The notes: generated from the letters alone by a model not told the origin. A DNA stretch of 63,724 nucleotides from Bacteroidota bacterium (GCA_038525605.1 JBCBHL010000001.1:1-63724), one strand, 5' to 3'. Shown: positions 14,646 through 63,724, counted from the first letter of the stretch. Program-made: numbers and translations.

Positions 14646-14666
14646 AGAAATTAAAAGGTTAAAATT

Positions 14667-15257: not shown

Positions 15258-15261
15258 CTTC

Positions 15262-16149
15262 TTATAATTTATCTAATAAAAAGGCTATCTGAACGATCGG
15301 TAAGTACAGAAAAGAACCAAACATGATTCTCAATGCTGATTTTCTTGAGTTATCTTTCATCAACATAAATGTTTGTGAAAGGAACAAGACGCCGCAAATC
15401 GTAACCACCACTGCACTATTGATTCCTGTAATGCCCAGATAGGCAGGGAACAACCCTAACGGTAAGAGAAACAAAGTGTACGTCATAATGTTAATAGCAG
15501 TATTCAAATCTTTTTTACCACCTCCTGGCAACAATTTAAATCCTGCTTTCTTATAATCTTCATCGGAAACCCAGGCGATTGCCCAAAAGTGTGGAAACTG
15601 CCAAACAAACTGTATTCCGAATATGATAAAGGCTTCCAATGAAAAACCACCGGAAACTGCAACCCATCCAATCAAAGGTGGTAAAGCACCCGGAATTGCA
15701 CCAACAAATACCGCAATTGGCCCAACCCTTTTTAACGGTGTATAAACGTAGCTATATAAAATTGTAGAAATCAACGTTAAAAGGACCGTCAATGGATTAG
15801 TAAAGATGTACAGTAACGCCACCCCTACAATTAAACAAGCTAAAGTAAAGATGTTCGCTTCAGCTGCGTTGATTCTATTGGTAGGCATGGGTCTGCCTGC
15901 CGTTCTCTTCATAACCTTATCAAACTCTACTTCTTTTATCTGATTGATGGTCACTGATGCTCCTGAAATCAGAAACCCTCCAATACAAAATACTATAAAT
16001 GACAACCAGTCAATTGACCCGGTTGCACCAAGCATGTAACCAAAACCTGAGGAAAATGTAACCAAAAAAGACAAACGAGGTTTCATTAACTCGTAATAAG
16101 CCTTCAGTTTTTCAACTACAGAAATGTTTACAACAGAACTATTATTCAT
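15262..16149 (-). CDS. ctaB: Protoheme IX farnesyltransferase (heme O synthase)
   Basis: 295 aa UbiA-family prenyltransferase with blocks NQIKEVEFDKVMKRTAGRP and YSYVYTPLKR. It overlaps the ctaA stop. Confidence 0.9.
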   Translation of the reverse strand: MNNSSVVNISVVEKLKAYYELMKPRLSFLVTFSSGFGYMLGATGSIDWLSFIVFCIGGFLISGASVTINQIKEVEFDKVMKRTAGRPMPTNRINAAEANIFTLACLIVGVALLYIFTNPLTVLLTLISTILYSYVYTPLKRVGPIAVFVGAIPGALPPLIGWVAVSGGFSLEAFIIFGIQFVWQFPHFWAIAWVSDEDYKKAGFKLLPGGGKKDLNTAINIMTYTLFLLPLGLFPAYLGITGINSAVVVTICGVLFLSQTFMLMKDNSRKSALRIMFGSFLYLPIVQIAFLLDKL

Positions 16150-19071: not shown

Positions 19072-19083
19072 AGTTAACTCTTT

Positions 19084-20166: not shown

Positions 20167-20188
20167 AAGCTATACGCAGATTTCCTTT

Positions 20189-21529
20189 TTAAATATGATG
20201 ATTTAAACTTTCCTGAAGCATCGGATGGTTTTTCGCCACCAAAGGCTTCTTCGCTAAATTACTTAACACAACATACAAGAACGATCCGGCATAAATTGCA
20301 AGCAATCCAATTTCAAGCAATCCAAATCCTCCGTTTTCCTGTAATGTACCTGGAGTAATCATTAAGTAAAAATCTAACCAGTGACCGAAAATGATAATCG
20401 GGCAAACTACCTTCAAAATTCTTCCATGTCTCTTCGAATCTCTCGTCATTAACAATAAGAAAGGTAAGAAGAAGTTTAAAATCAAATTAATGAAGAAAAC
20501 TGGTGCATAATGATCGTTTTTCCATCTCTCAACGAAATATATGGTCTCTTCCGGAATACCTGCATAATAGATCAGTAGGAACTGAGAAAACCAGATATAT
20601 GTCCAGAAAATACTAAAAGCAAAAACAAACTTTCCTAAGTCGTGTACGTGATTGGCATTCACCACCTTCAAATATCCCTTATCCTTGAGCAATACTACTA
20701 TAAAGGTAATTAGCGCAAGTCCTGATACCCACCAGCTGGCAAATACGTACCAACCAAACATTGTTGAGAACCAGTGCGTGTCAATGGACATTACCCAATC
20801 CCATGCTGCCATTGAACTGGATACTGCAAAGAATACAAGGAATATAGCGGACCACTTTCTCATGCTCTTCCACAAGTCAACGCCTCCTATCTCATCTTCT
20901 TTGTAGGCAAAAACAGCTAATTTTTTAAACAACCAGTACCACACACCAAAGAACACTAAAAATCTACCAATGTAAAATCCTTGATTTAGATACCAGGACT
21001 TCCCGGCAATTATCTTGTCATAATTAGCACTTTCCGGATCATACAATGAACTATCTAACCAGTGGAAAAGTGAATGTGAGCTATATGAAGCGCCAAAAAC
21101 CACTGCTATTGATAATGCAGCAAAAGGTAACCAGTTACCGAAAGCCAAAGGCACTCTTAAAACTCCAGCGGACCAACCGGCCTGAGAAGCATATTGAATC
21201 GCAAAAAAGAAAATTCCTATCAGTGCTAAACCAACAAAAAAGATACTATTAATCCATAAATTAGAAAATAATCTCTTCTGCCAGACCGGAGCACCATGAT
21301 GATGACCATCTTCTCCCCCACCAGCAGCAACTGTTTTCATTTCAACATCAGATTGATTTACGGTCTCAATCTTAACTTGTCCGGCATCTGCATGGCCATG
21401 ATCGTCTCCGTGACCACCACCAGACATAGTAATTAACAATCCACCAATTGTAAGTACTATTCCAATTACAATAGTGATCAATAAAGCCTTTTTCGTACCG
21501 GAAGTAAATTCGTATTTTTCTTCAATCAT
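20189..21529 (-). CDS. actF: Alternative Complex III subunit ActF (quinol:cytochrome c oxidoreductase membrane subunit)
   Basis: 446 aa polytopic NrfD-like membrane protein at the ActF position after ActE. It has a His-rich loop (GGGHGDDHGHADAG). Confidence 0.75.
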   Translation of the reverse strand: MIEEKYEFTSGTKKALLITIVIGIVLTIGGLLITMSGGGHGDDHGHADAGQVKIETVNQSDVEMKTVAAGGGEDGHHHGAPVWQKRLFSNLWINSIFFVGLALIGIFFFAIQYASQAGWSAGVLRVPLAFGNWLPFAALSIAVVFGASYSSHSLFHWLDSSLYDPESANYDKIIAGKSWYLNQGFYIGRFLVFFGVWYWLFKKLAVFAYKEDEIGGVDLWKSMRKWSAIFLVFFAVSSSMAAWDWVMSIDTHWFSTMFGWYVFASWWVSGLALITFIVVLLKDKGYLKVVNANHVHDLGKFVFAFSIFWTYIWFSQFLLIYYAGIPEETIYFVERWKNDHYAPVFFINLILNFFLPFLLLMTRDSKRHGRILKVVCPIIIFGHWLDFYLMITPGTLQENGGFGLLEIGLLAIYAGSFLYVVLSNLAKKPLVAKNHPMLQESLNHHI

Positions 21530-21545
21530 CTCTTTAAAAAATCAA

Positions 21546-22181
21546 TTACTGCTTTTGCAATTTTTGAACATACTTTACAATCTTCCACCTGTCCTCTACA
21601 CTAATTTGAGAAGCATGTGCACCCATACGGCCTTTACCATGTGTAATTACATGAAAAATATGACCCTCTGGTTTGTCTTTCAATGCATCTGAGGCATAAT
21701 TAGGAACACCGAGGTAAACCTTACCTACAAGGCCGTCTCCAGCACCCTTTTCACCATGACAGTGCTCACAAAATCTGTCGTATAATACTTTTCCTTCTTT
21801 CAGAACAGCTTCAGAATCCTTTATTGGACTAGGCACTAAAGCAGCAGCTTCCAAATCATCCTTTTCAAGTCTGTAAGGAACATACTTAGCTCTTCGAACA
21901 GTACCGGCAACAGGCTCTCTCATAGTCATCCTGTTGGCATTGTATGGATTCGAATTGTAGAATTCACCCTGGTTATCTTCAGGATTTGAATCTAACCATT
22001 CTCCCTGAGTCTTGTCAGTAATCTGAGTAAGAGGCTCATAAGGTATTGAATGATACATTTGTGGTGCGTATTCAACACCAGTATAATCATCCTTAGCTGC
22101 ACAGGAGCTTAACAAAGCTATAATGCTAAGAACTAGTATCGATTTGATTACGTTAGTATGGTTCATCTTCAATAAATCCAC
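21546..22181 (-). CDS. actE: Alternative Complex III monoheme cytochrome c subunit ActE (lipoprotein)
   Basis: 211 aa with a lipobox (LLSSC) and a single CEHCHG heme-binding motif. Confidence 0.8.
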   Translation of the reverse strand: MDLLKMNHTNVIKSILVLSIIALLSSCAAKDDYTGVEYAPQMYHSIPYEPLTQITDKTQGEWLDSNPEDNQGEFYNSNPYNANRMTMREPVAGTVRRAKYVPYRLEKDDLEAAALVPSPIKDSEAVLKEGKVLYDRFCEHCHGEKGAGDGLVGKVYLGVPNYASDALKDKPEGHIFHVITHGKGRMGAHASQISVEDRWKIVKYVQKLQKQ

Positions 22182-22723
22182 TATTCAAAATCTTTATTAT
22201 TCACCTCAGCAGCACCAGAACCGGAAATAATTCCTTTAATCTGATCTTCTGATAAATTATTTTTTGCCAAATCAACAGCCATTACGTGCTTGTCATCTGT
22301 TACTCTGATATCAAACAACCTAGGTTTTGCCCACGGTTTCAGTCCACTGATTACCAGGAATGTACCTACCATACCGAATGAGGCAAGCAGTACTGTCAAC
22401 TCAAAAGTAACAGGGATAAAATCAGGAATTGCCACGTGATCCTTTCCACCAATGATCATTGGCCAGTCAACTCCAAGCATACCAATCTGCATTGTAAGAG
22501 CAAGGGAAGTTCCTAACAAACCGAACATAAACGCTACAATTGACAGTCTTGATCTTTTATAACCCAGCACATCTTCGATTCCATGCACAGGAAACGGAGA
22601 GTATACCTCATGGATTTTGACTCCTTCCTCACGCACATGCTTGATGGCCTTCAACAGCACATCTTCATCATCATAAATGCCTAGAACAAAATTCTTATCG
22701 CCTTCCATATTCTTAATTTTCAA
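22181..22723 (-). CDS. actD: Alternative Complex III subunit ActD (DUF3341)
   Basis: 180 aa with two central TM helices. It is overlapped by the actC end and abuts the actE start, the canonical ACIII order. Confidence 0.75.
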
Positions 22724-24119
22724 CTTTTTCAGTTGTTTCTACCTGAGATTCTTTTGATGCTAATTTTTCACCAGTAGCTTTCACAATACTCTTCACTTCT
22801 GCCATGTTGATCACAGGGAAGAACTTAGCGAATAAAAAGAATAAAGTAAAAAACAAACCAAATGTGAACAGGTAAGTACCTACATCATACATAGTGGGCT
22901 CGAACATTGCCCAGCTCGAAGGCAGGTAATCTCTGTGTAATGAGGTTACAATGATCACAAATCTTTCGAACCACATTCCAATATTCACAATGATTGAAAT
23001 AATGAATGTAGAAGCAATATTTGTTCTGATCTTCTTGAACCAGAATAACTGAGGAGAAATCACATTACATGTCATCATTGACCAGTAAGCCCAACTGTAC
23101 GGCCCAAAAGCTCTGTTAATAAATGCATATTGTTCAGCCTCTACTCCGGAATAAGAAGCGATGAAAAATTCAGTAATATATGCAATACCCACTATCGACC
23201 CAGTCACAATGATTACAATGTTCATCATTTCAAGGTGTTGCAGGGTAATATAGTCTTCTAATTTATAAACCTTCCTTGTTACGATCAACAAGGTAAGTAC
23301 CATAGCAAATCCTGAGAAGATAGCACCAGCTACAAAGTATGGAGGAAATATTGTTGTATGCCATCCTGGAATCACAGAGGTTGCAAAGTCAAAAGATACA
23401 ATGGTATGTACAGAAAGTACCAGTGGCGTTGCAAGTCCTGCAAGTACCAACGAAACTGTTTCATATCTTGACCATGTTTTAGCAGCTCCGTCCCAACCAA
23501 AACTCAATGCGCCATAGATAGCCGCTGATATTTTGTTAGTTGCTCTGTCTCTAATTGTTGCAAAATCGGGAATCAGACCGATATACCAGAAAACAAGGGA
23601 TACCGAGAAATAAGTTGAAATTGCAAAAACGTCCCAAAGAAGCGGAGAATTGAAGTTCACCCATAAAGAACCGTATGTATTTGGCAATGGTAAAGCCCAG
23701 AAAGCCCCTAACCAAGGCCGTCCCATGTGCAATACAGGGAACATAGCGGCACAAATTACGGCAAATATCGTCATCGCTTCAGAAGCTCTGTTGATAGACA
23801 TTCTCCATCTCTGTCTGAATAGCAACAATACAGCGGAAATAAGTGTTCCGGCATGACCGATACCTACCCACCATACGAAGTTGGTGATATCCCAAGCCCA
23901 TCCAATGGTATTGTTATTACCCCAAACTCCAATACCTTCCCACAGTAAGCCACCTACATAGTAACCTCCGACGGCTAGCATACCAAGAGAAATTGCCATG
24001 ACAAGTAGCCAAAGAGGTGCTGGCTTTTGTTCTACTCTTTTTGCGATATCATCTGTGACATCATGAACCGATTTACCACCGGTTATTAAGGGTTCGCGAA
24101 CTGCTGATTCTACAACCAT
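22713..24119 (-). CDS. actC: Alternative Complex III quinol-interacting subunit ActC (NrfD/PsrC family)
   Basis: 468 aa, about 10 TM helices, with NrfD-type blocks ([27 protein letters not shown]). Confidence 0.85.
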
Positions 24120-24132
24120 AAGCTATTTATAA

Positions 24133-27100
24133 TTAAGCGTGAGCTTCTTTATTAGATTCCTCGTCTTTATTTCTGATTTTAGTCATGTACCAAACGTTTG
24201 GCATAACTCTTAATTCTTCCAATGCATGGAATGCTCTTGGCTCCTGTGCCTCAACCATTTTTTCCTCTCTCTTAATTTTAAGAAGTTTGGAAATTTTGCT
24301 TTGAGGATCATTCATATCACCGAATACCAATGCATCCGTAGGACATGAACTTGCACAAGCTGATACAATCTCACCATCAACTGGTCTTCTGTTTTCTTTC
24401 TTCGCCTGAAGTTTTCCGGCCTGTACTCTTTGAACACAGAAAGAACATTTCTCCATAACACCTCTGGCTCTAACAGTTACGTCAGGGTTTAAAACCATTT
24501 TACCAAGGTTGTTATTCATAGCAGTATTCTTATCAAACTGCTTATTATCATGGAACTTGAACCAGTTAAATCTTCTAACCTTATAAGGACAGTTGTTTGC
24601 ACAATATCTTGTACCGATACATCTGTTATAAGTCATTTGATTCAAGCCTTCTGAACTATGCGTAGTAGCAGCAACAGGACATACAGTCTCGCAAGGAGCA
24701 TTGTTACACTGCTGACACATCATTGGCTGGAACACAACTTCCGGGTTGGCAGCTGCCTGTTCTTTGATGTCTAATGCATCGAAGAAACCAGTTTCCTCAT
24801 CAATTCTTTCATCATCGAAGGAATAATACCTATCAATTCTTAACCAGGCCATTGATCGACCGTTGATGATCTGATCTTTACCTACAACTGGAATGTTGTT
24901 TTCTACCTGACAAGCAATTGTACATGAACCGCAACCTGTACACGAATTCAAATCGATTGCCATTCCCCAATGGTGATTGTTGTAAGAGTGACCACTCCAC
25001 AATGTCACAGCATTAGGTGATTGTTTGTTACCAGAAGCATCGGTAATTTTGATTTGATGTCTTCCAGCATATTCATCCTGTTGGTAATTTTTCAGGATGC
25101 TTTCCTGCACCACAAAAGTTCTTCCTGCATATGTTTCAGCAGTCTGAGTTTGTGCTACTTTATATTCTTCATCTGTCAATGCTACAGTTACATCAGCAAC
25201 ATTTAGATGATTTGCTCCATTTACATATTTAATGAATGGATATGCATTTACACCTACACCGTCACCAACCTTACCTGCTTTGGTTCTACCGTAACCAAGT
25301 GAAAGTCCGATTGTACCTTCCGCCTGACCTGGCTGAACTATTACCGGAACTTTAACAGTCGTACCACCAACAGTGAGGTTGGCTAACCTGGATTTCATAT
25401 ATCCAAGTTTAATCCCGTTGGTATCTGCCCATTCAGCAGACACAGTAATATAATTATCCCAACAAGCCTTTGTGATAGGATCTGACATTTCATGTAACCA
25501 AGGGTTATTACCCTGGAAACCAGTACCTAAAGTACCTGATTCATAAATTGCCAATTCAATCCCACTGCTTTTTGCTTTAGATACGATAACACCGGAAACA
25601 TCGTAATTAAATACCGCTGTTTCTTCAGGTACAGCATAATCTACTAACACGCCTTTGTATAAACAGTCATCGAAGAACGACTGGAAATTAGCAAAATCAG
25701 CCACATTGCTGTGAGTTGACCATCTGTTTCTCAGATAATCGTAGTAAGATGAAGTTTCGCTACCTGACCACACAAGGAATGATTCCTGAGCTTGTCTTGT
25801 ATCGAAAATATTGCTGATGGTTGGCTGAGAAAAGCTGTAAGTTCCTGATATTGGTTCGAAATCATTCCATGACTCGAGATAATGATGATCAGGAGCGTTG
25901 TACTTCACTAATGAAGATGTTTCGTCAGCTCTGTCCGTAGTTGAAACAGTTGCAGGAAGACCAGCAATCGCAGAAGCAATTTCAGCGCCTCTTGCATGAT
26001 CATAAACAGGATTACAATTGAAGAATATCACAGCCCCAGCTGATTTATTTATCATATTGTCAACCAATCTATTCATTTGAGCATCGTTACCTTTTCTAAG
26101 ATTAACACTCTTATTAATATCTAATGTGTTACCATAATTACCCAATAAAGAGTTAATGGCATTTACAAGAATTTGTACATTTTGATCATTTGATCCGGCT
26201 ACTACAATCGACTCTCCTCTGCTTTTCAGAAGATCATTTGCCGCCTTTGTCAAATTGGTTTTATCCGCAATACTACCGGCACTCACCTGAGCCCCACCAG
26301 TCTTTGCAGCAACCATATTGTATAAGTTAGCTACATAAGAAGCTTCTTCTGAAGGTCTGATTCTGGTTCTGTAGTCAGCGTTTGCACCAGTCAAGGAAAG
26401 ATTTGATTCGAATGCATAAAGCCTTGACATAGTTTTCTTTCCGCCTCCCAACTTTCTGGTTTGTGCAAACTGCTTGTTATTGGCAGCATGAGAGTAATGC
26501 GCACCGAGGAAATCAGCGCCAATACTTACAATAGTCTTTGCTTTAGAATAGTCGTATGATGGTAAAGCTCTCTTGCCGAAAGTCGCTTCGTTGGCAGAAA
26601 GTACTCCGTGTGAAGAATTAGGATCATACATCACATGCTCAAACGAAGTAAATCTATTCTTCAATTCATCGATAGCTGCCTGCGTAGATGGACTAAAAAC
26701 AGAATAACTTACTAAAGTTACTTTTCCAGCCGAAGAAAGTGCTGAAGAAACCTGACCGTCAAGGTCTGACCAGCTGGCTTCCTTTTGATCAATCTGAGGT
26801 CCTTTTAGTCTTTGCTGATCATATAAAGATAAAACTGAAGCCTCTGACTGTGCTGTAGTAGCACCGCCATTGAATTCAGCATAGGAATTACCTTCTACTT
26901 TTATAGGTCTACCCTCTCTGGTCTTTACAACCAGAGCATTGTAATCATTACCTGTCAGATAGGAAGTGGCATAATAGTTAGGAATAGCCGGATCAACATC
27001 TACTGGCTTCTTCACATAAGGTATTGCCTTTCTGATTGGTGCCTCACAAGCAACCAAAGAAGCTGCTGCGATACCAAAACCCATCATTTTGAGAAAATCT

Positions 27101-27231
27101 CGTCTGTTGGGAGCTTCTTCTTCACTTATTGGAAGCGCATCAGGAAACTCCTTGTCAGCATTTTTCACGAACTCAACGTCATTGGTCAATTGCTCTAGGC
27201 CTTTCCAGTATACTTTATTCGTTTTTTTCAT
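24133..27231 (-). CDS. actB: Alternative Complex III subunit ActB (fused molybdopterin-oxidoreductase-like and 4Fe-4S ferredoxin domains, TAT signal)
   Basis: 1032 aa with twin-arginine motif NRRDFLKMMGFG. The C-terminal Fe-S cluster motifs are CTGCGSCTIACQ, CQQCNNAPCETVCP, CIGTRYCANNCP and CSFCVQR. Confidence 0.9.
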   Translation of the reverse strand: MKKTNKVYWKGLEQLTNDVEFVKNADKEFPDALPISEEEAPNRRDFLKMMGFGIAAASLVACEAPIRKAIPYVKKPVDVDPAIPNYYATSYLTGNDYNALVVKTREGRPIKVEGNSYAEFNGGATTAQSEASVLSLYDQQRLKGPQIDQKEASWSDLDGQVSSALSSAGKVTLVSYSVFSPSTQAAIDELKNRFTSFEHVMYDPNSSHGVLSANEATFGKRALPSYDYSKAKTIVSIGADFLGAHYSHAANNKQFAQTRKLGGGKKTMSRLYAFESNLSLTGANADYRTRIRPSEEASYVANLYNMVAAKTGGAQVSAGSIADKTNLTKAANDLLKSRGESIVVAGSNDQNVQILVNAINSLLGNYGNTLDINKSVNLRKGNDAQMNRLVDNMINKSAGAVIFFNCNPVYDHARGAEIASAIAGLPATVSTTDRADETSSLVKYNAPDHHYLESWNDFEPISGTYSFSQPTISNIFDTRQAQESFLVWSGSETSSYYDYLRNRWSTHSNVADFANFQSFFDDCLYKGVLVDYAVPEETAVFNYDVSGVIVSKAKSSGIELAIYESGTLGTGFQGNNPWLHEMSDPITKACWDNYITVSAEWADTNGIKLGYMKSRLANLTVGGTTVKVPVIVQPGQAEGTIGLSLGYGRTKAGKVGDGVGVNAYPFIKYVNGANHLNVADVTVALTDEEYKVAQTQTAETYAGRTFVVQESILKNYQQDEYAGRHQIKITDASGNKQSPNAVTLWSGHSYNNHHWGMAIDLNSCTGCGSCTIACQVENNIPVVGKDQIINGRSMAWLRIDRYYSFDDERIDEETGFFDALDIKEQAAANPEVVFQPMMCQQCNNAPCETVCPVAATTHSSEGLNQMTYNRCIGTRYCANNCPYKVRRFNWFKFHDNKQFDKNTAMNNNLGKMVLNPDVTVRARGVMEKCSFCVQRVQAGKLQAKKENRRPVDGEIVSACASSCPTDALVFGDMNDPQSKISKLLKIKREEKMVEAQEPRAFHALEELRVMPNVWYMTKIRNKDEESNKEAHA

Positions 27232-27257
27232 TATGATATTCTAAAGTAAATTCTTGA

Positions 27258-28568
27258 TTAATAATGACATTTTGAACATTCCAAACCGCCGATATCTTCT
27301 ACCTTCATCGGTGTTTTGCCATTGTTATCTTCATGGAGTTCGACCAGTTTATTGTAATATCCATTGCCTTTTGTATTGACATTGGTCTCTCTGTGACAAT
27401 TAATACACCATCCCATCGTGAGAGGTGAATACTGATACACTACTTCCATTTCTTTTATTTCACCATGACAAGTTTCGCATTCCAGGCCACCGACTTGCAC
27501 GTGCTGTGAGTGATTGAAATATGCTAAATCTGGCAAATTATGTACTCTGACCCACTCTATCGGTTTGGTATTATTACCATACTCGAGCGTTTCAGGATTG
27601 TAATCAATAGCTGCGTATATTTTCTGAATTTCAGAAGATTCAGTTTTGATCGCTGAATGGCAATTCATACAGATGTTTGCCGAAGGGATGTTTGCTGACT
27701 TAGCTTTTCGAACACCTGTGTGACAATATTGACAATCAATCTCATATTGCCCTGCATGTATTTTGTGAGAGAAAGCGATTGGTTGCTTTGGCTGATAGTT
27801 CTGCTGTACACCAACAGTAAACAAACCATCAATACCTGCTTTCATACCTAGTGCCACTATAATAAACACAAGTAAACCAACAACTCCGTTACTTTTAAAG
27901 AACTTACCTAAATCAAACCTTTGATTGACCACTTCTGCATCGGCATCCTCCAAATCTTCCTTATCTTTTAATACTTTGGTAAGGATATTAACCATCAGAC
28001 CAAGAACTACCAGAATCAACAATAAAACGATCACTAAGATGACCATTACCGTTGTCACATAGGTAGAATCTACACCTGCATTATTGGCGACAGCTCCGCC
28101 TTCAGTTGTAACCACTTTATCCTCTTGAGGAGGACCTTTGATTGTTTCGTCCTGAATATAAGCTAGCAAAGCGTCAATATCATCATTCTTGAAACTTGAG
28201 AATGAAGTCATCTGAGTTTTGTTGTACTCATTGTAGAGATTTACTGCGTATTCATCTCCGCTACTAATTACCTTAGTGGAATTCTTAATGAATGCGTAGA
28301 TCCATTCCCTACTAGGAACACGTTCCCACACATTTGCAAGCGCAGGACCGATAACTTTTTTATGTACCTGATGACATGAAGTACAATTCGCCTTAAATAA
28401 TTTTTCTCCATTAGCAATGACTGCCGGATCGGTAGAAATACCGTTATCGTCTGCCGCAGTGTCTTGCGCCTGTAATGAATGAAATACAGAAAATAGAGAG
28501 AATATTAAGAGAAAAGCCAGGTAATTTCTTTTGACTTTCGACATTATAGAAGTTTTCTTTTTGTTCAT
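27258..28568 (-). CDS. actA: Alternative Complex III multiheme cytochrome c subunit ActA with an extra N-terminal monoheme domain
   Basis: 436 aa with a signal peptide. CxxCH motifs: CTSCH (N-terminal domain), then a TM segment, then CQYCH, CMNCH, CETCH, CINCH and CSKCH. Confidence 0.85.
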   Translation of the reverse strand: MNKKKTSIMSKVKRNYLAFLLIFSLFSVFHSLQAQDTAADDNGISTDPAVIANGEKLFKANCTSCHQVHKKVIGPALANVWERVPSREWIYAFIKNSTKVISSGDEYAVNLYNEYNKTQMTSFSSFKNDDIDALLAYIQDETIKGPPQEDKVVTTEGGAVANNAGVDSTYVTTVMVILVIVLLLILVVLGLMVNILTKVLKDKEDLEDADAEVVNQRFDLGKFFKSNGVVGLLVFIIVALGMKAGIDGLFTVGVQQNYQPKQPIAFSHKIHAGQYEIDCQYCHTGVRKAKSANIPSANICMNCHSAIKTESSEIQKIYAAIDYNPETLEYGNNTKPIEWVRVHNLPDLAYFNHSQHVQVGGLECETCHGEIKEMEVVYQYSPLTMGWCINCHRETNVNTKGNGYYNKLVELHEDNNGKTPMKVEDIGGLECSKCHY

Positions 28569-28912: not shown

Positions 28913-30748
28913 TTACTTCAATAATCTATTGAACACGTCATGAAGATCGGGACGGATATTTAATTGATAAATCTTGCGGTTATTACGGGTGGGATACACT
29001 CTGTTTGATAAGAAAATGAATAAGAGCTCATTCTCCGGATCAGCCCAAACAAAGGTTCCTGTATAACCTGAATGTCCATAGCTTCTGTAGCTTGCTAAAG
29101 GCGAAACACTGCTCTTCACAGGATCATATTCAATCAAAGGTTTGTCAAAACCGAGCCCTCTCCTATTCCCCTCTTCGCAGTACTGGCAACTAGTAAATTT
29201 ATCGATCGTCTGTTTGCTTAGATACCTCGTTCCTCCGTAAGAACCTTCGTTCAAAAGCATTTGCCATACTTTGGCCAAATCATTAGCAGTTGCAAACAAA
29301 CCGGCATTGCCGGATATGCCTCTCATCATAGCTGCGCCTTCATCGTGTACCACCCCATGCAATGGTTTCATTCTGAAAAAAGTGTCTACTTCCGTTGGTA
29401 CTATCCTATCCAAAGGATATTGTACTCCGGCATTAAAACCTATCGTTTCGGCTCCAAGTCCTCCATAAAATTCATCCTTCAAAAAAGATTCAAAGGGCTT
29501 ACCGCTAAGGTTTTCGACAATTTCCGGATAGAGGTAAAAAGACAGTCCCGAATACACATAACCCGGGCTTTGATTTGGTGGCGACTTCCTGATCATTTTG
29601 TAAATAGTCTTTTTATAATCTTTGTGCAGAAATAATGAATCATTCAATTGATGAGTGTATTTTTCATCTTGTTTAGTAGACAAGGTATTTTTTTTGTACC
29701 TCCCGTTCTTGCGTTTTGTGGTAATCCAGTAGGGAATCCACGACTTTAGTCCAGCATTGTGTGCCAGAATGCTACGAAAGGTCAGTTGCTTCTTTTCTTT
29801 ATAAGTAAAATCCGGCCAGTAAGTATAGGCCGGAGCATCTAAATCGAACTTTCCACTATCGTGTAGCTTCATGAGTGCCAGCGTTGCTCCCGTAACTTTC
29901 GTCACTGATGCCAGGTCATAAATATCATCTTTTTGCAAAGCTCGGATCGAATCATATGTGTGGTATCCAAAGGCTTTGTGATAAAACACCTTACCGCTTT
30001 TAACAGCCATCACCTGAACGCCAGGGAATGCCTGAGCTCTAAGCCCTTTTTCCAGTATTTCATATACCTTCTTGTGCAAGGTATCGCTGTCAATCCCAAG
30101 TTCCTCAGGAATAGTATACTTTAGTCTGCTTCTTTCCGTCAACTCGCCCGTCCCGTTGGCATAACGATCCCCAATTGCTTCTTTCAGCGCTCCTTTCGCG
30201 GCAATACCACCAAATAGCAACTGTGCTGTATAGTCCTGCGTTAGCATTTCAGCATCCTGAGACCTCACAACAACCTGAGCCTGGTCTACCCATTGTTGAG
30301 TGGCTATCGAAGAATTGCCCTGCAAGCTTACATATATTATAGTGTAATCATCAAACAGTGACTTCAATCGTTCCATTATCTTTTCTTCTACCGTTGAATC
30401 TGTCTGTATTAAAATCAACGTGCTGACGGAATCGATGGGAAGACTGCCATTATTTAAAGCAGCATTGGAAGCGTTTTCAATGAAATCCGGCTGTCGGTAA
30501 CTCTTACATCGTTCCACAAAAGCATCCGCTGATTTGCTGCCAATGTTCAAAACGCCATAAGACAATTTATCAAGTTGTTTGAATGGTAAAATATCATTTT
30601 CATTTTTTAGCAGTACAATTTCCTGCTCTTTTTGCAATCTCGATAGCAATTCTATGTTATTTTGAGAAAACAATAAATTTGAGAAGATCAAACAAAAAAA
30701 TCCGGCGATCAACCATTTCATATACATAGTACTGCTAATTTTACCCAT
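28913..30748 (-). CDS. Serine hydrolase (class C beta-lactamase/PBP-like domain) with an N-terminal extension
   Basis: 611 aa with a signal peptide, an S-x-x-K active-site motif (LASVTKV), and a C-terminal HSGYTG block typical of this family. The true start may be one of the nearby Met codons (MYMKW). Confidence 0.8.
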   Translation of the reverse strand: MGKISSTMYMKWLIAGFFCLIFSNLLFSQNNIELLSRLQKEQEIVLLKNENDILPFKQLDKLSYGVLNIGSKSADAFVERCKSYRQPDFIENASNAALNNGSLPIDSVSTLILIQTDSTVEEKIMERLKSLFDDYTIIYVSLQGNSSIATQQWVDQAQVVVRSQDAEMLTQDYTAQLLFGGIAAKGALKEAIGDRYANGTGELTERSRLKYTIPEELGIDSDTLHKKVYEILEKGLRAQAFPGVQVMAVKSGKVFYHKAFGYHTYDSIRALQKDDIYDLASVTKVTGATLALMKLHDSGKFDLDAPAYTYWPDFTYKEKKQLTFRSILAHNAGLKSWIPYWITTKRKNGRYKKNTLSTKQDEKYTHQLNDSLFLHKDYKKTIYKMIRKSPPNQSPGYVYSGLSFYLYPEIVENLSGKPFESFLKDEFYGGLGAETIGFNAGVQYPLDRIVPTEVDTFFRMKPLHGVVHDEGAAMMRGISGNAGLFATANDLAKVWQMLLNEGSYGGTRYLSKQTIDKFTSCQYCEEGNRRGLGFDKPLIEYDPVKSSVSPLASYRSYGHSGYTGTFVWADPENELLFIFLSNRVYPTRNNRKIYQLNIRPDLHDVFNRLLK

Positions 30749-33168: not shown

Positions 33169-34524
33169 TCAAGACAGAAATGAAAAGCAACCTGGCATAC
33201 AATCATTTGCGGAATCATTTTCCAAATCATAATCAACCATCGGTATCACATAAGCCCATTTGATTCTTTCTGGTAAAATCCCACCAGCAACAGATATTTC
33301 CGCTTCACTTTTAAATGCCACTTTTCCTTCTTTTTGTTTAATTCCAGCTTGCTTATTCAACTCATTGTTTAGCGTTACCTGATCAAAAACGATATCCTCG
33401 TCAGTCAGTTCAATCATCATCAAAAGGAAGTATTGCTGGAATGCTTTATTGTCATTTTTCGTAGCTGACATACCATATATGTAATCACCAGCTGTTGTTG
33501 AAACAAAGTTGCTACTTTTATAATCACTTGTCTGATGCTTCTTTAGTTCCATAATTGTAGGTGCACCTCCGAGCTCCTCTTCAGGTGTCACCACATTCGC
33601 ATATTTGTTTCTTAATCCTACAATTGCTTTTTTAGCCTTGCTTTTGCTTTTCTGAGTCTTTTCTTCTCTAAGGCTTCCAGATAAAATGCCATTGTTAACC
33701 ATCATTCTACATTGTTGCAGGCTTAATCTGCTTTGTGATCTATGTACCAGATACCTCTCATTTTGATCTTTGTAATCATTTTTCTGAAGCTTCTTAATTT
33801 CCATTCCCTTTTCGTATAGCTCATCTTTTCCATAGTTTGAAAGTTCTTCCTTTGCTGACTTCTCAATCTGTTCGATCTTCTCGGCATAGGTCTGCATTTT
33901 AATTGGAGTATCTTTTATAGAACCATGTCTCTGAATGATCTGGTTCTTTGATATTGAATCATTGGTAAAACCTGAGACTCTTTGTATGGTACTGCCCTGT
34001 GAATTACTAGTTGATTCCTGAAGTTCTACAGTATTGAAATCATTTGCCATCCTATCAACTATCACTTCCCTTGTTGTATCAATTGAATAGCCGTTAATGT
34101 TCCTATCTCCTTTTGGTGTACCATTAATCGAGTTATCGATGGCATGGGCCACTTCATGCCTGATGTTGTAGTCACTATCCATGCCGGGCCCGAAATGAAT
34201 TTGATTCCCTTGAATTAATGCCTCTGCGTGTAGTTTGGCAGGAAAGGACGAATTATGTATTGATTTCAGCTGTGATGTATCTACACCATATTTGGCCCCC
34301 ATAGCATCTGCGATGTTTTCAAATTTTCGGGAACGGTTTGCGAAAGCAGGCGCGACCCGGGTCTCCTTTTGGCTGCTTTCACGGATCGAGTCACCGATTT
34401 TACGTTGTATTACAGTCTGTGGTCGATTGTCCCGGATAGATATAGAATGTATTTTATTCGAAGCACAATCAGATTCCTTTTGAAATCTACTTCCAATCGT
34501 GTTTATGTGACTTTTTGCTTTCAT
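33169..34524 (-). CDS. eCIS-core/DUF4157-like (variant HEVAH subtype) N-terminal domain protein. The C-terminal module has possible R-S-ExE ADP-ribosyltransferase motifs.
   Basis: 451 aa. The N-terminal block YGVDTSQLKSIHNSSFPAKLHAEALIQGNQIHFGPG...IRHEVAHAIDN is shared with the 49754-51877 protein. The C-terminal part has VHRS, FVSTT and SEAEISV in the order expected for R / STS / ExE. Confidence 0.7.
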   Translation of the reverse strand: MKAKSHINTIGSRFQKESDCASNKIHSISIRDNRPQTVIQRKIGDSIRESSQKETRVAPAFANRSRKFENIADAMGAKYGVDTSQLKSIHNSSFPAKLHAEALIQGNQIHFGPGMDSDYNIRHEVAHAIDNSINGTPKGDRNINGYSIDTTREVIVDRMANDFNTVELQESTSNSQGSTIQRVSGFTNDSISKNQIIQRHGSIKDTPIKMQTYAEKIEQIEKSAKEELSNYGKDELYEKGMEIKKLQKNDYKDQNERYLVHRSQSRLSLQQCRMMVNNGILSGSLREEKTQKSKSKAKKAIVGLRNKYANVVTPEEELGGAPTIMELKKHQTSDYKSSNFVSTTAGDYIYGMSATKNDNKAFQQYFLLMMIELTDEDIVFDQVTLNNELNKQAGIKQKEGKVAFKSEAEISVAGGILPERIKWAYVIPMVDYDLENDSANDCMPGCFSFLS

Positions 34525-45117: not shown

Positions 45118-46491
45118 TCATTTACTTTCTATATATCTTTTGAATAAATATGCATAAGTATCCGCATTAGCCACACTGTATTTAATGTCGAACTCATTAT
45201 CTTTTGCAGTAGTAGGACCAGTTGAGTAAAAATTGTCGTGGGTACCGGCAAAGTAGTGTGTTAGTTCATGCATAAAAGTATCTCTAACAGCTCCTTTGGT
45301 CTTTTTTTCATTACCTGATAAAATATTCATATTAAGATAAAGCCTGTCTCCATTTATTTGTTTTAATTCATCAGAGTCTTGAAGAAATTTAAAACTTGAT
45401 ATATTCTCGCCTTTAATAAATGGATCTTTTTTGATGGTAACCTTATCTATATTTTTAACCCCTTTGACTTTTTTGTTCTTTCTTTTAAAAGCTTCTTCAC
45501 TATGTTTTGAATAGCCGACCTTTTTAGAGTGTTCTTCTAATTCAATCTGTTTCACTAGCCCTAACACATCCCTTCCTATAGCACTGGAAATCTCAACAGT
45601 AATTGGACTTCCTTCCAGTCCTGTTTTCACCCTGGAAAATGTTTGTATAATATACGGTAGATATCTTTTAGTAAGCGTGAAATTATTGATCGGTAGACCA
45701 AATGATTCTTGCAATATGATAAAAACCGGACTTTTTCTATTTCTACTGTATTCTTTTACCTGCATTCCATTGACCCGATTCAAGTCTATCAGAATCTTTG
45801 TTAAATTAGTCCTGATCTCCTCATATGCATCTTTGATGAGCCTTATGAAATCTTTATATTTTTTATTGCGAAACCTTGCATTTGACTTTATAATGAGGTT
45901 TTCATCTTCGTAAATATCCTTTCTTTGGATCGTTGATGAATGTACCTTTTCCGATACCAAACCTGGATTTCCGCTATTTTCAACCTGTTCATGATGAGAT
46001 TTCAAAGCCTTCTCTCCCATCACATCGGCCTCTCTTTCCAGAATTACGTCGTCGTTGATATTTACTCCTCTTTTAAATTGAAAAGTGGGTCTTACTCTAC
46101 CCTGCTTTTGCTGCACGACATGCCAGGCTTCATGCGGCAGGTGTCTTTCCTGTCCGGGAGCCAGGTGGATATCAGTGCCTTGCGCATAGGCATGCGCCCT
46201 TAACTGTGCAGGTTTAGAAGAGTTGTAGTGAACTTTTACATCGTCCATTGAGTAACCGGAAAGATTCTCAATCCCTGTTTTCAATTGGATAGGAAGACCG
46301 TCACTTCTTTTACTAAACTGAGGGTCAGGTTTTAGTGGGTGATTCATCGTTTCATGGAGCTTTCGCTGATAAACTGCACCGGGGCGATTGTCTGCTATGG
46401 TTGCTGCTCCATGTAAATGCTCTTCCACTTGTTGTCGCGGTTCTTTGCTAGTGGCAGATAAGTCGTATATCGTTTTGTTCATTTTGATCAA
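45118..46491 (-). CDS. DUF4157 / eCIS-core domain protein with a C-terminal HExxH (HELTH) metallopeptidase-like module
   Basis: 457 aa. N-terminal block HEAWHVVQQKQGRVRPT. C-terminal part ...VRDTFMHELTHYFAGTHDNFY. Confidence 0.8.
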   Translation of the reverse strand: MIKMNKTIYDLSATSKEPRQQVEEHLHGAATIADNRPGAVYQRKLHETMNHPLKPDPQFSKRSDGLPIQLKTGIENLSGYSMDDVKVHYNSSKPAQLRAHAYAQGTDIHLAPGQERHLPHEAWHVVQQKQGRVRPTFQFKRGVNINDDVILEREADVMGEKALKSHHEQVENSGNPGLVSEKVHSSTIQRKDIYEDENLIIKSNARFRNKKYKDFIRLIKDAYEEIRTNLTKILIDLNRVNGMQVKEYSRNRKSPVFIILQESFGLPINNFTLTKRYLPYIIQTFSRVKTGLEGSPITVEISSAIGRDVLGLVKQIELEEHSKKVGYSKHSEEAFKRKNKKVKGVKNIDKVTIKKDPFIKGENISSFKFLQDSDELKQINGDRLYLNMNILSGNEKKTKGAVRDTFMHELTHYFAGTHDNFYSTGPTTAKDNEFDIKYSVANADTYAYLFKRYIESK

Positions 46492-46675
46492 TAATCAATG
46501 AATTAGAAATTAGAATTGTCACTGTTGTTGATAAAAACCAGAAAGTGCAAGTCATTCGAAAACTAAAAACTAACCCGAATGCTGGTTCTTCAACAACCTG
46601 AATAGCAACGCCTGGCCATTATCAAATTATGACCTGATGCCTCGCTCTTTTCACATCGTCAAGTAAATAAGGTCT

Positions 46676-46742
46676 CTGCGATCTTACTATCAGAAACCCG
46701 ACATTCTCTGTGAATTACCGGACGGTGGTTTTAATAATCAAA
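46676..46742 (-). repeat. Conserved upstream-leader block, copy 2 (upstream of the 45118-46491 gene)
   Basis: ...cttactatcagaaacccgacattctctgtgaattaccggacggtggttttaataatcaaa. Homology with the 48958-49170 region continues to about 46890 (gttgattgatgcttgtctg, ttttgaagaactgct, agtttaaccaa.cttcattat). Confidence 0.65.
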
Positions 46743-47124
46743 GTATTGTTGATTGATGCTTGTCTGCATACAACACACCTGAACCAATCAACAGGTTTTG
46801 AAGAACTGCTCTGATACCCGAGCGTACCTGTTAAGATTAATTTCAGATTGCTTATGAAAAGTTTAACCAAACTTCATTATTTGACTTGTAACCTCCTATC
46901 GGTAGAAATACCAACAAAGACAATGAGGTAAAAACACCAATATCTGCAAAGATTACTTACAATCTCTTGTTGGTGACAACAGCAACAAGGGCAAACGATG
47001 AAACAGCAACAAGGGCAAAGACTAAAAGCCGGAATTTAGCCAGTCAACTTTTTCAGTTGTTACTTGTAGTCTCCAGGTAATGAAATATATTCGCAAATGG
47101 TCAGAAGGCCTTTAAATGATACAC

Positions 47125-48840
47125 CTACAATAAGAATTTCTTCCATGTATCTATCCAATACTTTTGCCTGAAGGTGGAATCCTGCGTATCCCGGATTTCA
47201 TAAACGCCTGCATATGATCCATCATCAAGCTGCAATAGGTTCGGGTCGTTTAGACTATTAATCTTTTCCTTCACATCCGGAAATGGCTCTTCATTTTTCT
47301 TCAATTGATTAACAGCATAGTCGACATATTCCAGATAATCCTTATTTTTTACTACTTCGGAAGGCAGATTAGCCATAATTGCATCCCCCAACCACCACCT
47401 GATCTGAAGGTCATTATCGGCCCAATATTGCTTTTTTGCCCACGGGCTTAATGTGATTTGTTGATTGATATCCGTCTTGCTTAAGATTGGGAAATAATTT
47501 TTGATTTGTTGTTTATTCGGATCATTAACCCCATAATAATAAGCTGCTGCTGAATAGAGGTAATAAAATGAAATATTTCTTAGGTAGTAAGCATCCCATT
47601 CATCTACTAATACCTTCTTCATCAGGTGATTCAACACTGCAAACCAAAAAGTATCATTCCAGAACTGCTGCATAGCTTCTGCATGTTTTTTCTGAGTGTC
47701 ATTTTCATTTGAAATCGTGTCCAGGTTAGCCGAATGCATTGATATCAGATCTCCTAAGTTTGCACCGACGTTGACCTGAATATTTCCCCAAAGTTCATCT
47801 TTGAATAAAATATAATCCTTAACTGTTGGTGGGATATCAAAAGTGTATTTCCCTACTGTATATGGACCCTTTTTGCAATTTTCGACAATATCATTAAGCC
47901 AGGTATTCACACTGACTAATATCTTTTCGGCCTCTTCGATAGAGTTTACTGGTACTGTAACAATTTCAATCGCTGAATCCGAATACAACTTACCTGCCTT
48001 ATATAGTCTTCTATTAACAGGTGGGTGATCTACTTCAGCTTTCCACATGCCAGCTACCTCATGGATGAGCTGTTGATAGCCAGGATCGTACTGAAAACGA
48101 AGTTCTGCATCTGCTTTTTCATAAGCTTCTGATTTTTCCTCACTGGCATTCTCCTCATCATAATCACTAATGATTTGCTGATAATGCTCAATACCCAGCA
48201 TTTTCGTGATCTTAGCGTTTTTGTAAGCGTTAAAAACTGGTAGAGTCGTCTCAATCTCTAGACCTACTTTAGCATTGGCACTCTTCCTGACGCGTTGTAT
48301 AACCTGCTTATCGGCAATTTTGCTGCTCTTTGCACCGTTAGCTGCTGAATGACCTGAAAATTGGTTTGCCTTATCGCCCATCACATCGGCCTCTCTTTCC
48401 AGACTTAGATCGTCGTTGATATGTATTCCTCTTTTAAATTGAAAAGATGGTTTCACCCTTCCCTGCTTTTGCTGCACAACATGCCACGCTTCATGAGGCA
48501 GGTGTTTTTCCTGACCTGGACCCAGATGAATATCAGTGCCTTGTGCATAGGCTAAAGCATTGAGTTGGGCCGGCCTGTTAGAATTGTAATGAACTTTCAC
48601 ATCATCCATGGAGTAACCGGAAAGATTCTCAATACCTGATTTAAGTTGGATTGGCAGGCCGTTGGCTCTTTCGCCTCCGGGAGAATTTGCCGCTGTGTGG
48701 TGATTCATCGTCTCTCGGAGCTTTCGCTGATAAACAGTGAGGAGACGATAGTCTGCAATAGCCACAGCACCATGAGAAGAACCTGCTGCTTGTCCCGCAG
48801 GCTCTTTTTCTTCTTTAATTTCGGTTTTTGCTGATTTCAT
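47125..48840 (-). CDS. DUF4157 / eCIS-core domain protein, C-terminal family C
   Basis: 571 aa. N-terminal block HEAWHVVQQKQGRVKPS. C-terminal blocks VGLEIETT, AIEIVTVPV, GNIQVNVGA, YFPILSKT and GVYEIRD. Confidence 0.8.
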   Translation of the reverse strand: MKSAKTEIKEEKEPAGQAAGSSHGAVAIADYRLLTVYQRKLRETMNHHTAANSPGGERANGLPIQLKSGIENLSGYSMDDVKVHYNSNRPAQLNALAYAQGTDIHLGPGQEKHLPHEAWHVVQQKQGRVKPSFQFKRGIHINDDLSLEREADVMGDKANQFSGHSAANGAKSSKIADKQVIQRVRKSANAKVGLEIETTLPVFNAYKNAKITKMLGIEHYQQIISDYDEENASEEKSEAYEKADAELRFQYDPGYQQLIHEVAGMWKAEVDHPPVNRRLYKAGKLYSDSAIEIVTVPVNSIEEAEKILVSVNTWLNDIVENCKKGPYTVGKYTFDIPPTVKDYILFKDELWGNIQVNVGANLGDLISMHSANLDTISNENDTQKKHAEAMQQFWNDTFWFAVLNHLMKKVLVDEWDAYYLRNISFYYLYSAAAYYYGVNDPNKQQIKNYFPILSKTDINQQITLSPWAKKQYWADNDLQIRWWLGDAIMANLPSEVVKNKDYLEYVDYAVNQLKKNEEPFPDVKEKINSLNDPNLLQLDDGSYAGVYEIRDTQDSTFRQKYWIDTWKKFLL

Positions 48841-48957
48841 TATGTTGATCTATTCTCCAATACAAAGTGTACTGAAATTGCGTTCATTAGTCGTCGGCGG
48901 ATTGTGCAAAAAGACGCATTCAACCAAAAACAGATCAAATATTGCATCTTTCACCCG

Positions 48958-49045
48958 GCGCGCAATTAAATAACTATCCGGGAAGATAACTATCACAAAA
49001 CCGACATTGTCTGCGAATTGCCTAACTGCGATCTTAATAATCAAA
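48958..49045 (-). repeat. Conserved upstream-leader block, copy 3 (upstream of the 47125-48840 gene)
   Basis: gcgcgcaattaaataactatccgggaagataactatcacaaaaccgacattgtctgcgaattgcctaac... Confidence 0.7.
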
Positions 49046-49219
49046 ATGTTGTTGATTGATGCTTGTCTGGATACAGCTTATCTGGACCAATTAACAAGTT
49101 TTGAAGAACTGCTTTGATACCTAAAGTACCTATAAAAAGTTTAACCAGGCTTCATTATGTGACCTGAATTCTCCTGTTGATGAAAATACCAACAAGGGCA
49201 AGGATTAAAAAGAGAAGTC

Positions 49220-49722
49220 GGATAATGCTTACTTTTCCATTTCTGCAAATTGACCTTTCTACTTCACAAACGCATTTCTCCTTTGTGCAGATTGACTTTT
49301 CCACTTGACAAACGTATTTCTCCTTTGAGCAGCTGCATTTTTTAACTCGGTAAATGGACTTTTCTACTTGACAAACGTACTTTTCCTTTTGACAGACGCA
49401 TTTCTTCTTTGCACAGAAGCATTTTTCAACTCGACAAATGGACTTTTCCTTTTTGCAAATTGACTTTTCCTTTTGACAAATGCATTTCTCCACTTAACAA
49501 ACACACTTCTCCATTTGACAAATACATTTCTTCACTTGACAAACGGACTTTTCCTTTTGACAAAAGCACTTCTTCTTCGTGCAGATGCATTTTTCCACTC
49601 GGCAAATGGACTATTCTATTTGACAAACGTACTTTCCTTTTTGCAAATTGACTTCTCCGCTTGACAAACGCATTTCTCCTTTGTGCAGAAGCATTTTTCC
49701 AATCGGTAAATGGACTTTTTGA
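49220..49722. repeat. Degenerate 21-bp tandem repeat array, about 24 units, approximate + strand consensus cTTGACAAAcGcATTTCTCCt
   Basis: Read directly from the sequence. Units such as cttgacaaacgtatttctcct, tttgacaaatgcatttctcca, ttgtgcagaagcatttttcca and ctcggtaaatggacttttcta follow head to tail with no spacers. One unit is 20 nt. Several reading frames on both strands are open. Confidence 0.85.
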
Positions 49723-49753
49723 GGCATTCGGAAAAAAGCTGACTGTTTTAAAG

Positions 49754-62546: not shown

Positions 62547-63724
62547 TTACCATTCTACTACTAAAACCCTATCCATCCAGGGTAAACTAACCGTATGATA
62601 GCCCCAGGGCAGTTTCTGCAGCAGAATATCATACGTTTCTCTCTGCACCTGCAACAACCAGTGATTGTCCCGAATTCTCAGTGAGGCTGGTCTTTCAAGA
62701 TAGGAGGTGACAAATCCTTTCACAGACATGTTTTTCCATTGTGGCACCTGTCTGATAATAGCCTTAAGCAGGCCATCGACTATCTCCTTGTCAGAATCTG
62801 AGATATCGGTGATCCGGACTGCCTCTTCCATAGGAATCCCACATAAGACCTTTGCCAGCGGTAGCTGTCCCTCAAAAATTTCCGTTTCTTCCTGCCCACA
62901 AATAAACTGAAGCATGCAGGCTGCTTTTTGCCTTGCCGGGATGTCTTTAAACACCTGGTCTTCTACCAGCCCGAGATTCTCAAAAAACCTAGCCAGAAAA
63001 GGCCATAACAAGACGAGTCCTGCATTAGACACTGAAATGAAATCCGTATCATTAAAGTCAGACAAACCTGCCTGTATTGAGCTGCTTTTGAAGGCCTGCG
63101 CTTTGTGAATTTCCCAATCTATCTGATGGACATATTCTGCCAGCGGAATTAATTTAGTCTTCACTAATTCCTCAATCCGTTTTTTTGCCTGCTGATCAGC
63201 ATCGCCCTGACTGCTCTGACCGTTTCCTCTGATTCCAGTCAATAAAACTGCATTTTCAGCATTTGACTGTAACTCCTGCAACAGGTTTTCGAGTTTTTGT
63301 AATGATGCCGATGAAACTCCCTTGAAAGCAGATCCTGAGATTTTATTGGCTAGATGCTGAAAGAAATGCTGCCATAGCTCAATCTCCTTGTTCAATGACA
63401 AATAATACCTGATCAGACTCTTTATGCTCTTCACTGACTTCAGCACAGTACTTTCCCGTTTTACCGAATCAACTCCCAGCAAATCGAGTGTTGATGTGCT
63501 GTAAATGCTTTTCATTTGCAAAAAGGATCGCGGTGGCTGCTGAGCCATCGGTAACTGATTGAAGATATTAAATATCAGCGCTTTTACAATTTCTCTATGC
63601 GATGGTACCTTCGCTAGCTTCGGCCCTGAAAACTGTATTTGCTTTTTGACTTGTTCTATGAGTTTCTGAACATCTACTAAGGATATTCCTGCGATCAGAT
63701 AGATACTTTTGATGAGCTGTTCTT
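62547..63724 (-). CDS. Hypothetical protein, probably a contractile injection system tape-measure-like (Afp14-position) protein. The 5' end lies outside the window.
   Basis: The track ORF starts at 63548, but my translation of 63549-63724 in the same frame (EQLIKSIYLIAGISLVDVQKLIEQVKKQIQFSGPKLAKVPSHREIVKALIFNIFNQLP-MAQ...) has no stop, so the gene is truncated by the window edge. The blocks NAGLVLLWPFLARFFENLGL and LPWGYHTVSLPWMDRVLVVEW match my memory of proteins found just upstream of the eCIS ATPase. The assignment is unverified. Confidence 0.45.
   Translation of the reverse strand, partial: EQLIKSIYLIAGISLVDVQKLIEQVKKQIQFSGPKLAKVPSHREIVKALIFNIFNQLPMAQQPPRSFLQMKSIYSTSTLDLLGVDSVKRESTVLKSVKSIKSLIRYYLSLNKEIELWQHFFQHLANKISGSAFKGVSSASLQKLENLLQELQSNAENAVLLTGIRGNGQSSQGDADQQAKKRIEELVKTKLIPLAEYVHQIDWEIHKAQAFKSSSIQAGLSDFNDTDFISVSNAGLVLLWPFLARFFENLGLVEDQVFKDIPARQKAACMLQFICGQEETEIFEGQLPLAKVLCGIPMEEAVRITDISDSDKEIVDGLLKAIIRQVPQWKNMSVKGFVTSYLERPASLRIRDNHWLLQVQRETYDILLQKLPWGYHTVSLPWMDRVLVVEW

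Follow-up and report, generated by a model that had tools for sequence, protein, structure and literature searches.

In the window, the whole 63,724-nt stretch of Bacteroidota DNA that was analysed, two PF13699 cargo-type genes are separated by a tract of degenerate 21-bp tandem repeats. We put the probability at roughly 0.5 that this tract is a non-coding minisatellite of a kind typical for its genome, and that the cysteine-heptad open reading frame (ORF) running across it is a by-product. The array is real, but it is old and decayed, with units only 60-75% alike. Since 21-nt arrays form a genome-wide intergenic class, a plain non-coding repeat is the leading reading. Two observations argue against it, namely codon-like variation among the units and a hydrophobic tail in phase with the cysteine frame. 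Two more set the array apart from the rest of the class, as it is present in a single copy in the genome and is not predicted to be curved.

Position and make-up of the array

The tandem array in the intergenic gap is genuine. TRF placed it at 49240-49679 with periods of 21, 42, 63 and 84; the top score (356) belongs to period 84 (4.2 copies, 73% matches), and matches from unit to unit at period 21 amount to 65%. Base identity reaches 0.60 at lags that are multiples of 21, compared with 0.13-0.36 at the remaining lags. Counted along the minus strand, beginning at 49720 and ending at 49239, the units follow the consensus GAAAAGTGCATTTGTCAAATG, which is translated to EKCICQM, and four sub-types return in an irregular 84-nt higher order. 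The conserved columns make up a core, AAAGT ... TTTG ... A, that is found in nearly all units, and the longest exact repeat within the array is 26 nt, its two copies being 398 nt apart. The array has the strand of the flanking genes, begins 33 nt past the stop of the upstream gene and ends about 400 nt ahead of the next PF13699 cargo gene. An independent Logan assembly of run SRR22824309, from reads that are possibly the same, is 100% identical across the whole spacer, indicating that the frameshift and the stops listed in Table 1 are not the errors of one assembler.

An earlier note on this DNA had described about 24 degenerate 21-bp repeats, with four recurring sub-types, in a 913-nt gap (48841-49753) between two minus-strand genes. 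These coordinates are borne out and all four sub-types were found, and TRF together with the unit register refines the count to 23 full units plus a 9-nt partial one. The same note held that the tract is not a CRISPR array, and we agree, as the units are contiguous and no unique spacers lie between them.

Table 1. Features of the spacer and its surroundings (window coordinates)
Feature	Position	Strand	Remarks
Upstream neighbour, 707 aa	49754-51877	-	weak eCIS_core match, PF13699 (19.5 bits versus a 22-bit cut-off)
21-nt array, 23 full head-to-tail units (unit 5 of 20 nt)	49239-49720	-	from TRF, unit table and lag identities
20-nt unit (unit 5)	49617-49636	-	one A lost, GAAAAG to GAAAG (49636-49632); Cys frame shifted
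In-frame TAG, Cys frame	49611-49613	-	AAG in other units
In-frame TAA, Cys frame	49494-49496	-	CAA in other units; GTG (49493-49491) directly after
Longest open piece of the Cys frame, GTG-started ORF of 112 aa	49155-49493	-	12 heptads and hydrophobic tail IIRLLFLILALVGIFINRRIQVT
Partial last unit, 9 nt, GGAAAAGTA	49230-49238	-	array merges with conserved leader block here
Leader block common to the spacer upstream of the 45118-46491 paralogue	48989-49211	-	73% identity to 46686-46934
Downstream neighbour, 571 aa, PF13699 (eCIS_core) cargo-type protein	47125-48840	-	
Paralogous spacer, no array	46492-47124	-	single-copy unit-like stretches GACCATTTGCGAAT and GAAAAAGTTGAC; 24-nt duplication of TTTGCCCTTGTTGCTGTT

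The eCIS_core domain PF13699 (formerly DUF4157) occurs in both neighbours and in most genes between 33169 and 60022. Residues 47-157 of the upstream product are 59% identical to a paralogue encoded at 34009-34341. Structural genes of an extracellular contractile injection system (eCIS) lie on the same strand of contig C1 at 61143-77570, just past the window, and include those for tube, spike tip, hub, baseplate J, tape measure and AAA ATPase. For the tape measure protein (PF19268) there are two overlapping ORFs, 398 and 230 aa long (C1 62547-63743 and 63595-64287), instead of one; a frameshift, a sequencing error or programmed slippage could be the cause of this split at 62547-63724 of the window and beyond. 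The block adjoining the cargo island (window 13860-28568) consists of alternative complex III, a caa3 cytochrome oxidase and CtaA rather than injection-system genes, and a beta-lactamase-family gene (28913-30748) sits between this block and the first cargo gene. The genome comprises 7.65 Mb in 672 contigs with a G+C content of 39.4%; it carries 119 T9SS C-terminal sorting domains, and neither psbA nor rbcL was found in it. It is thus a Bacteroidota genome, and a cyanobacterial origin, first suggested by pentapeptide repeats, was rejected. Five genomes of the same genus lack both the spacer and the toxin island. No initiator gene or origin feature was found near the array, whose flanks are PF13699 cargo-type genes.

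The onset of the array falls exactly at the end of the leader-block homology, and the leader block takes in the 3' half of the hydrophobic 'tail' together with its TAA. Because the tail lies within a block that is shared with an array-free paralogous spacer, it is part of a leader that was duplicated with the toxin cassettes. The homologous frame in the paralogous spacer reads ...LIVFVGISTDRRLQVK-stop and is Cys-rich, again without a start. A decayed copy of the tail had been reported there earlier; the homology between 48989-49211 and 46686-46934 upholds the copy, but the frames quoted for it are not the homologous one. The unit-like words of the paralogous spacer would agree either with an array that grew in situ from a local seed or with one that was lost from the paralogous spacer. 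The paralogous spacer also carries a 24-nt tandem duplication at 46957-47020 (TTTGCCCTTGTTGCTGTTTCATCG / TTTGCCCTTGTTGCTGTTGTCACC), whose sequence is related to TTGCCCTTGTTGGTATTT, a word of the tail near 49176-49193.

An interrupted cysteine-heptad frame

Read on the minus strand, the units give (E/K)-K-(C/S/Y)-(I/V/F)-C-x-x, and the frame runs into IIRLLFLILALVGIFINRRIQVT-stop. The heptad (E/K)K-x-x-C-x-x, followed by a hydrophobic tail and a stop, had been pointed out in the earlier note and is confirmed on the sequence. This reading exists, but it is not an intact gene, as it lacks a start and contains a 1-nt deletion and two in-frame stops. Upstream of unit 1, no ATG, GTG or TTG occurs as far back as the TAA that follows the upstream gene. 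The GTG directly after a TAA and the single 20-nt unit had both been noticed correctly, whereas the second in-frame stop, the TAG at 49613-49611, had been missed. The three minus frames contain 2, 3 and 4 stops, and the cysteine frame is thus not uniquely open; since the remaining two contain no more than 3 and 4, the scarcity of stops belongs to the unit itself rather than to any single frame. Gene prediction for the Logan contig took a different frame with an ORF of 54 aa, and the 112-aa frame was not chosen. The frame of the upstream gene is in phase with the cysteine frame of units 1-4, but a TGA and a TAA close it. Nor is the array a C-terminal extension that the upstream toxin has lost, because the few homologs of this toxin are shorter, not longer.

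Searches for relatives of the 112-aa ORF gave no match in Pfam, NCBIfam, PADLOC or PDB sequences and none in a word-based search of 5.8 billion protein clusters. HMMER against 1.84 billion representatives returned 42 matches; the 12 that were examined are all unrelated low-complexity heptad ORFs without the tail, and one of these 12 lies on a further 21-nt array, carried by a Bacteroidota metagenome contig (JGI). A six-frame search of 40 related genomes found no homolog of the Cys-heptad ORF, metagenome contigs contained none either, and the leader 21-mer had two chance matches in metagenomes without further homology. No Cys-rich small ORF adjoins the PF13699 genes at 78 other loci. The earlier note had named an intact, ATG-initiated homolog elsewhere as a sign that the present copy is simply a pseudogene; none turned up among the proteins, the 40 related genomes or the metagenome contigs.

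The manner in which the units vary is the main point in favour of a coding past. The Nei-Gojobori pN/pS ratio is 0.33 in the cysteine frame, the lowest of the six frames and below 99.3-99.5% of column permutations (p 0.005-0.007). It is low in both halves of the array and reaches 0.34 for the units within the 112-aa ORF. In the first five codons, the variable columns are the third positions 3, 6, 9, 12 and 15 (diversity 0.40-0.51), and the changes there are mostly synonymous (GAA/GAG, AAA/AAG, TGC/TGT, ATT/ATC and GTT/GTC). As a calibration, 14 further arrays of the genome were put through the test; these gave 84 frame tests with a smallest p of 0.018, indicating that the test behaves. With the present array included there are 90 frame tests, among which one p near 0.005 is not remarkable. 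Mismatches counted by codon phase were not significant (p = 0.66), and a lag-based pN/pS estimate of 0.42 is within the range of minima from stop-filled arrays. The variation is suggestive of units that may once have diversified under coding constraint, a signal that loses weight through multiple testing and the lack of significance in the phase test.

This codon-like variation makes a relic of a tail-anchored heptad gene a serious rival, although we consider it somewhat unlikely. The tract would then be what is left of a small gene between the toxin cassettes, encoding a Lys/Glu/Cys-rich heptad domain followed by a membrane anchor at the C-terminus; the start would since have been lost, and a frameshift and two nonsense mutations gained. 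The low pN/pS lies precisely in the EKxxCxx frame, and in both halves, as the relic would have it, but it is this one p value among 90 that has to be set beside a phase test of p = 0.66. Retention of the cysteine at heptad position 5 (20/23 units), with third-position changes that mostly leave the protein unaltered, speaks for the relic, whereas no homolog was found anywhere searched and the 78 other PF13699 loci have no counterpart. The tail IIRLLFLILALVGIFINRR stands in phase and is followed by a stop, but T-rich leader DNA easily reads as hydrophobic. Similarly, the homologous frame of the paralogous spacer is Cys-rich too and ends in ...VGISTDRRLQVK-stop, but there is no start codon in either spacer. 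About 3-5 stops would be expected from neutral decay of such a stop-poor unit (a rough estimate) and two are seen, so that the stop count is no sign of selection. Also in favour of the relic, the array occurs once in the genome and is not predicted to be curved, in which it differs from most other 21-nt arrays. The decaying gene for a Cys-rich tail-anchored protein that the earlier note proposed is therefore left with codon-like variation (p ~0.006) on its side, and with the missing start, three lesions and the absence of a homolog against it.

Arrays of 21-nt period in this and other genomes

TRF on the whole genome found 259 arrays. Class counts were made on arrays of at least 100 nt, and an array was taken to be outside long open frames if it had no open frame of at least 200 aa. 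Among the 33 outside arrays, the period is 21 in 15, 42 in two, 20 in one and 37-41 in ten, compared with a period of 21 in 0/27 arrays inside long ORFs. The other 21-nt arrays differ in unit sequence, contain stops in most frames and have unrelated neighbours in varied intergenic contexts. The present array shares with the class its 21-nt units, its higher-order periods (42-105 nt in the class), stops in every frame and a position outside long ORFs, and the same period pattern is seen in the arrays C4, C65, C123, C12, C145 and others. By blastn, the spacer has no second copy in the genome, all matches being on contig C1; it differs in this respect from several other 21-nt arrays, which are dispersed multi-copy families (A-E) with conserved ends.

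Several repeat families were seen alongside. One dispersed family with the unit GGAGTCTTTGCGCCATTATAT is found at C145:2619-2814, C12:256-450, C420:5364-5540, C411:5876-6004 and C138:15447-15589 (L102-L106); its copies have the conserved ends ATAAAAGAAACCCGGAGGTTGCTT ... GGAGTTGTAGTAGTAAAATATGTAAAATTTATAATGGTGC and otherwise unrelated flanks, and two of them lie directly after FtsX-type permease genes. Further array families are C4/C65, C21/C12:44072, C211/C48/C58 (42 nt) and C102/C500. A second intergenic class has a period of about 37-41 nt, with an A7 or T7 run in many consensus units. It includes C421:2259-2732, C434:2867-3302, C357:2962-3276, C220:5209-5497, C152:3161-3397, C313:6865-7101, C406:1777-1969, C78:18635-18824 and C32:28784-29112, and an array of this period in Flavobacterium sp. 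J27 (L017:6719-7059) lies about 1.5 kb downstream of a PF13699 match. Finally, a short motif with the palindrome-like word GAATTCATAATTATGAATTC, scored by TRF as a 14-nt repeat, is dispersed over many contigs (C19:12345-12376, C273:10052-10083, C70:4164-4192, C144:14109-14136, C107:5625-5651, C46:7304-7330 and C26:26752-26786).

Similar 21-nt arrays are present in two genomes of the same genus, in Maribellus sp. CM-23 and in a JGI Bacteroidota contig. The Maribellus array (L063:4402-4899) starts 55 nt after a PF13699 gene, has a 105-nt higher order and contains an intact, ATG-started ORF of 165 aa made of SSNERCx heptads, with two further copies in that genome. Its units, with a pN/pS of 1.23, suggest that the SSNERCx ORF is likely spurious. 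This ratio and the other copies lead us to read the position beside a toxin gene as coincidence. A specific tie of 21-nt arrays to PF13699 genes was rejected, since the Maribellus locus is the only case among 78 foreign loci and about 0.25 cases would be expected at the array density of the present genome (a rough estimate). Two same-genus genomes, from sister species, share two pairs of orthologous arrays (L002/L007 and L003/L006) of a family with the unit CTGCATAAACCGCTCGATGCA and at least 7 copies across both genomes. The partners are equal in length and 87.5-88.5% identical, with flanks at 88-98%. The equal lengths in both pairs indicate that arrays of the class evolve by point substitution without gain or loss of units. 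In the literature, we found nothing specific on 21-bp arrays in Bacteroidetes.

The non-coding minisatellite reading suggests a simple history for the present tract. A short seed would have lain just past the stop codon of a toxin-cargo gene, where the conserved leader of the following cassette has its distal edge, and the array would have arisen from it by local tandem amplification. Point substitution would then have let the units drift to their present likeness. The Cys-rich heptad 'protein' would be a by-product of a unit with few stop codons in any frame, and the hydrophobic 'tail' would be T-rich leader DNA, which also stands beside the array-free paralogue. The array probably rides along in a long co-directional transcript, or as a spacer, of the eCIS cargo island, any cis effect presumably being tolerated or at most modest.

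Possible functions, known repeats and significance

A phase-variable tract was among the proposals of the earlier note, as was a slippage-prone gene. Neither agrees with the state of the units, which match by only 65% at period 21 and are too degenerate to slip, nor with the constant copy number of the orthologous arrays of the class. As the longest exact repeat is 26 nt at a spacing of 398 nt, slipped-strand phase variation is implausible, and the array appears fossil-like rather than a plausible phase-variation switch. The note's third proposal, a structural DNA or RNA element, also finds no backing. The array had no Rfam match at E up to 1, RNA folding was insignificant on either strand (z-scores -1.67 and +0.91), no inverted repeat, hairpin or inverted partner array was found, and the predicted end-to-end/contour ratio of 0.79, from a rough wedge model, shows no curvature in excess of the background (mean 0.81).

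A cis-acting element is an improbable alternative. The phased 21-bp units would offer a protein binding sites along one side of the helix, or act as RNA, and would insulate, attenuate or tune expression between two eCIS cargo cassettes. A period of two helical turns fits such binding, and period 21 is preferred among the intergenic arrays of the genome whatever their sequence, but the present array is predicted to be no more curved than background. Core columns conserved in nearly all units would suit recognition of this kind; on the other side, neither RNA structure nor Rfam gave a signal, and a scan covering only promoters of the sigma-70 type, together with intrinsic terminators, found none in the array. 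TAnnTTTG-like words in three units were, by eye, not joined by a properly spaced -33 element. The placement between a stop codon and a conserved leader is in favour of the element, whereas the paralogous cassettes do without an array. Likewise, members of the class are retained between species without change of copy number, but at 87.5-88.5% they are no better conserved than their flanks.

Curvature is more pronounced elsewhere in the genome. Nine of 13 other 21- or 42-nt arrays (C4, C65, C123, C413, C102, C58, C145, C12:256 and C420) are predicted to be strongly curved, with ratios of 0.12-0.61 against a background of 0.81-0.92. An array was called curved when its ratio was below that of at least 99.7% of 300 background segments; the dinucleotide wedge parameters are approximate, and these calls are indicative only. 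Strong curvature of these arrays would fit a period of two helical turns.

It is highly improbable that the 112-aa ORF is a live Cys-rich tail-anchored membrane protein with the upstream units as its untranslated leader: an open frame that begins with GTG, closes with a plausible membrane segment and contains units with a pN/pS of 0.34 is in its favour, but this GTG is the seventh codon of an ordinary unit, right behind a nonsense mutation, gene calling passed over the frame, it has no homologs or family, and the equal 'constraint' in the upstream half indicates that the signal predates the truncation.

Comparison with known repeats places a non-coding minisatellite closest to the bacterial intergenic minisatellites, or VNTR (MLVA) loci, which likewise consist of head-to-tail units of 10-100 bp without spacers between genes. 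However, the units of VNTR loci are nearly identical and their number varies from strain to strain, in contrast to the 60-75% likeness seen here and to the orthologues of the class, which keep their copy number between species. Iterons of plasmid and phage replication origins are direct repeats of 17-22 bp. The present array resembles them in unit length, in direct-repeat order and in sites that would be phased on one helical face, but it lies in a chromosomal eCIS island and its 23 degenerate copies are far above typical iteron sets. The Bdr proteins of Borrelia consist of tandem peptide repeats and are anchored in the membrane at the C-terminus. Only the coding reading would resemble them, as a short protein with charged peptide repeats in variable number and a hydrophobic tail anchor; there is no sequence similarity, and the repeat here has 7 residues, is Cys-rich, lies in a broken frame and has no homologs. 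TAACTGA heptanucleotide repeats are found in Beggiatoaceae, Cyanobacteria and five Bacteroidetes (PMC4679880). These and the cyanobacterial STRR are intergenic, sometimes begin directly after a stop and have a period of which 21 is a multiple, but the present array has neither a 7-nt sub-period nor an inverted partner array. Identity is at background at lag 7 (0.28) and lag 14 (0.26), and a heptanucleotide repeat was rejected on this ground.

Taken alone, the result is of little weight. It clears the annotation of an eCIS toxin island of a 'Cys-rich tail-anchored protein' that has no support, and it also argues against a phase-variation switch. Long intergenic arrays in this genome, and apparently in other Bacteroidota too, strongly favour 21 nt, with a second group at about 41 nt. 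Gene callers sometimes make spurious heptad-repeat proteins of such arrays, examples of which are present in public protein collections. It is a long shot that the 21-nt arrays represent an undescribed class of Bacteroidota repeat elements, sequence-diverse, with a period of exactly two helical turns, often in dispersed copies whose ends are conserved, retained between species and having a cis function based on helical phasing. If so, phased arrays might, for example, bind a nucleoid or regulatory protein or insulate transcription units, and the present one would separate two toxin-cargo cassettes.
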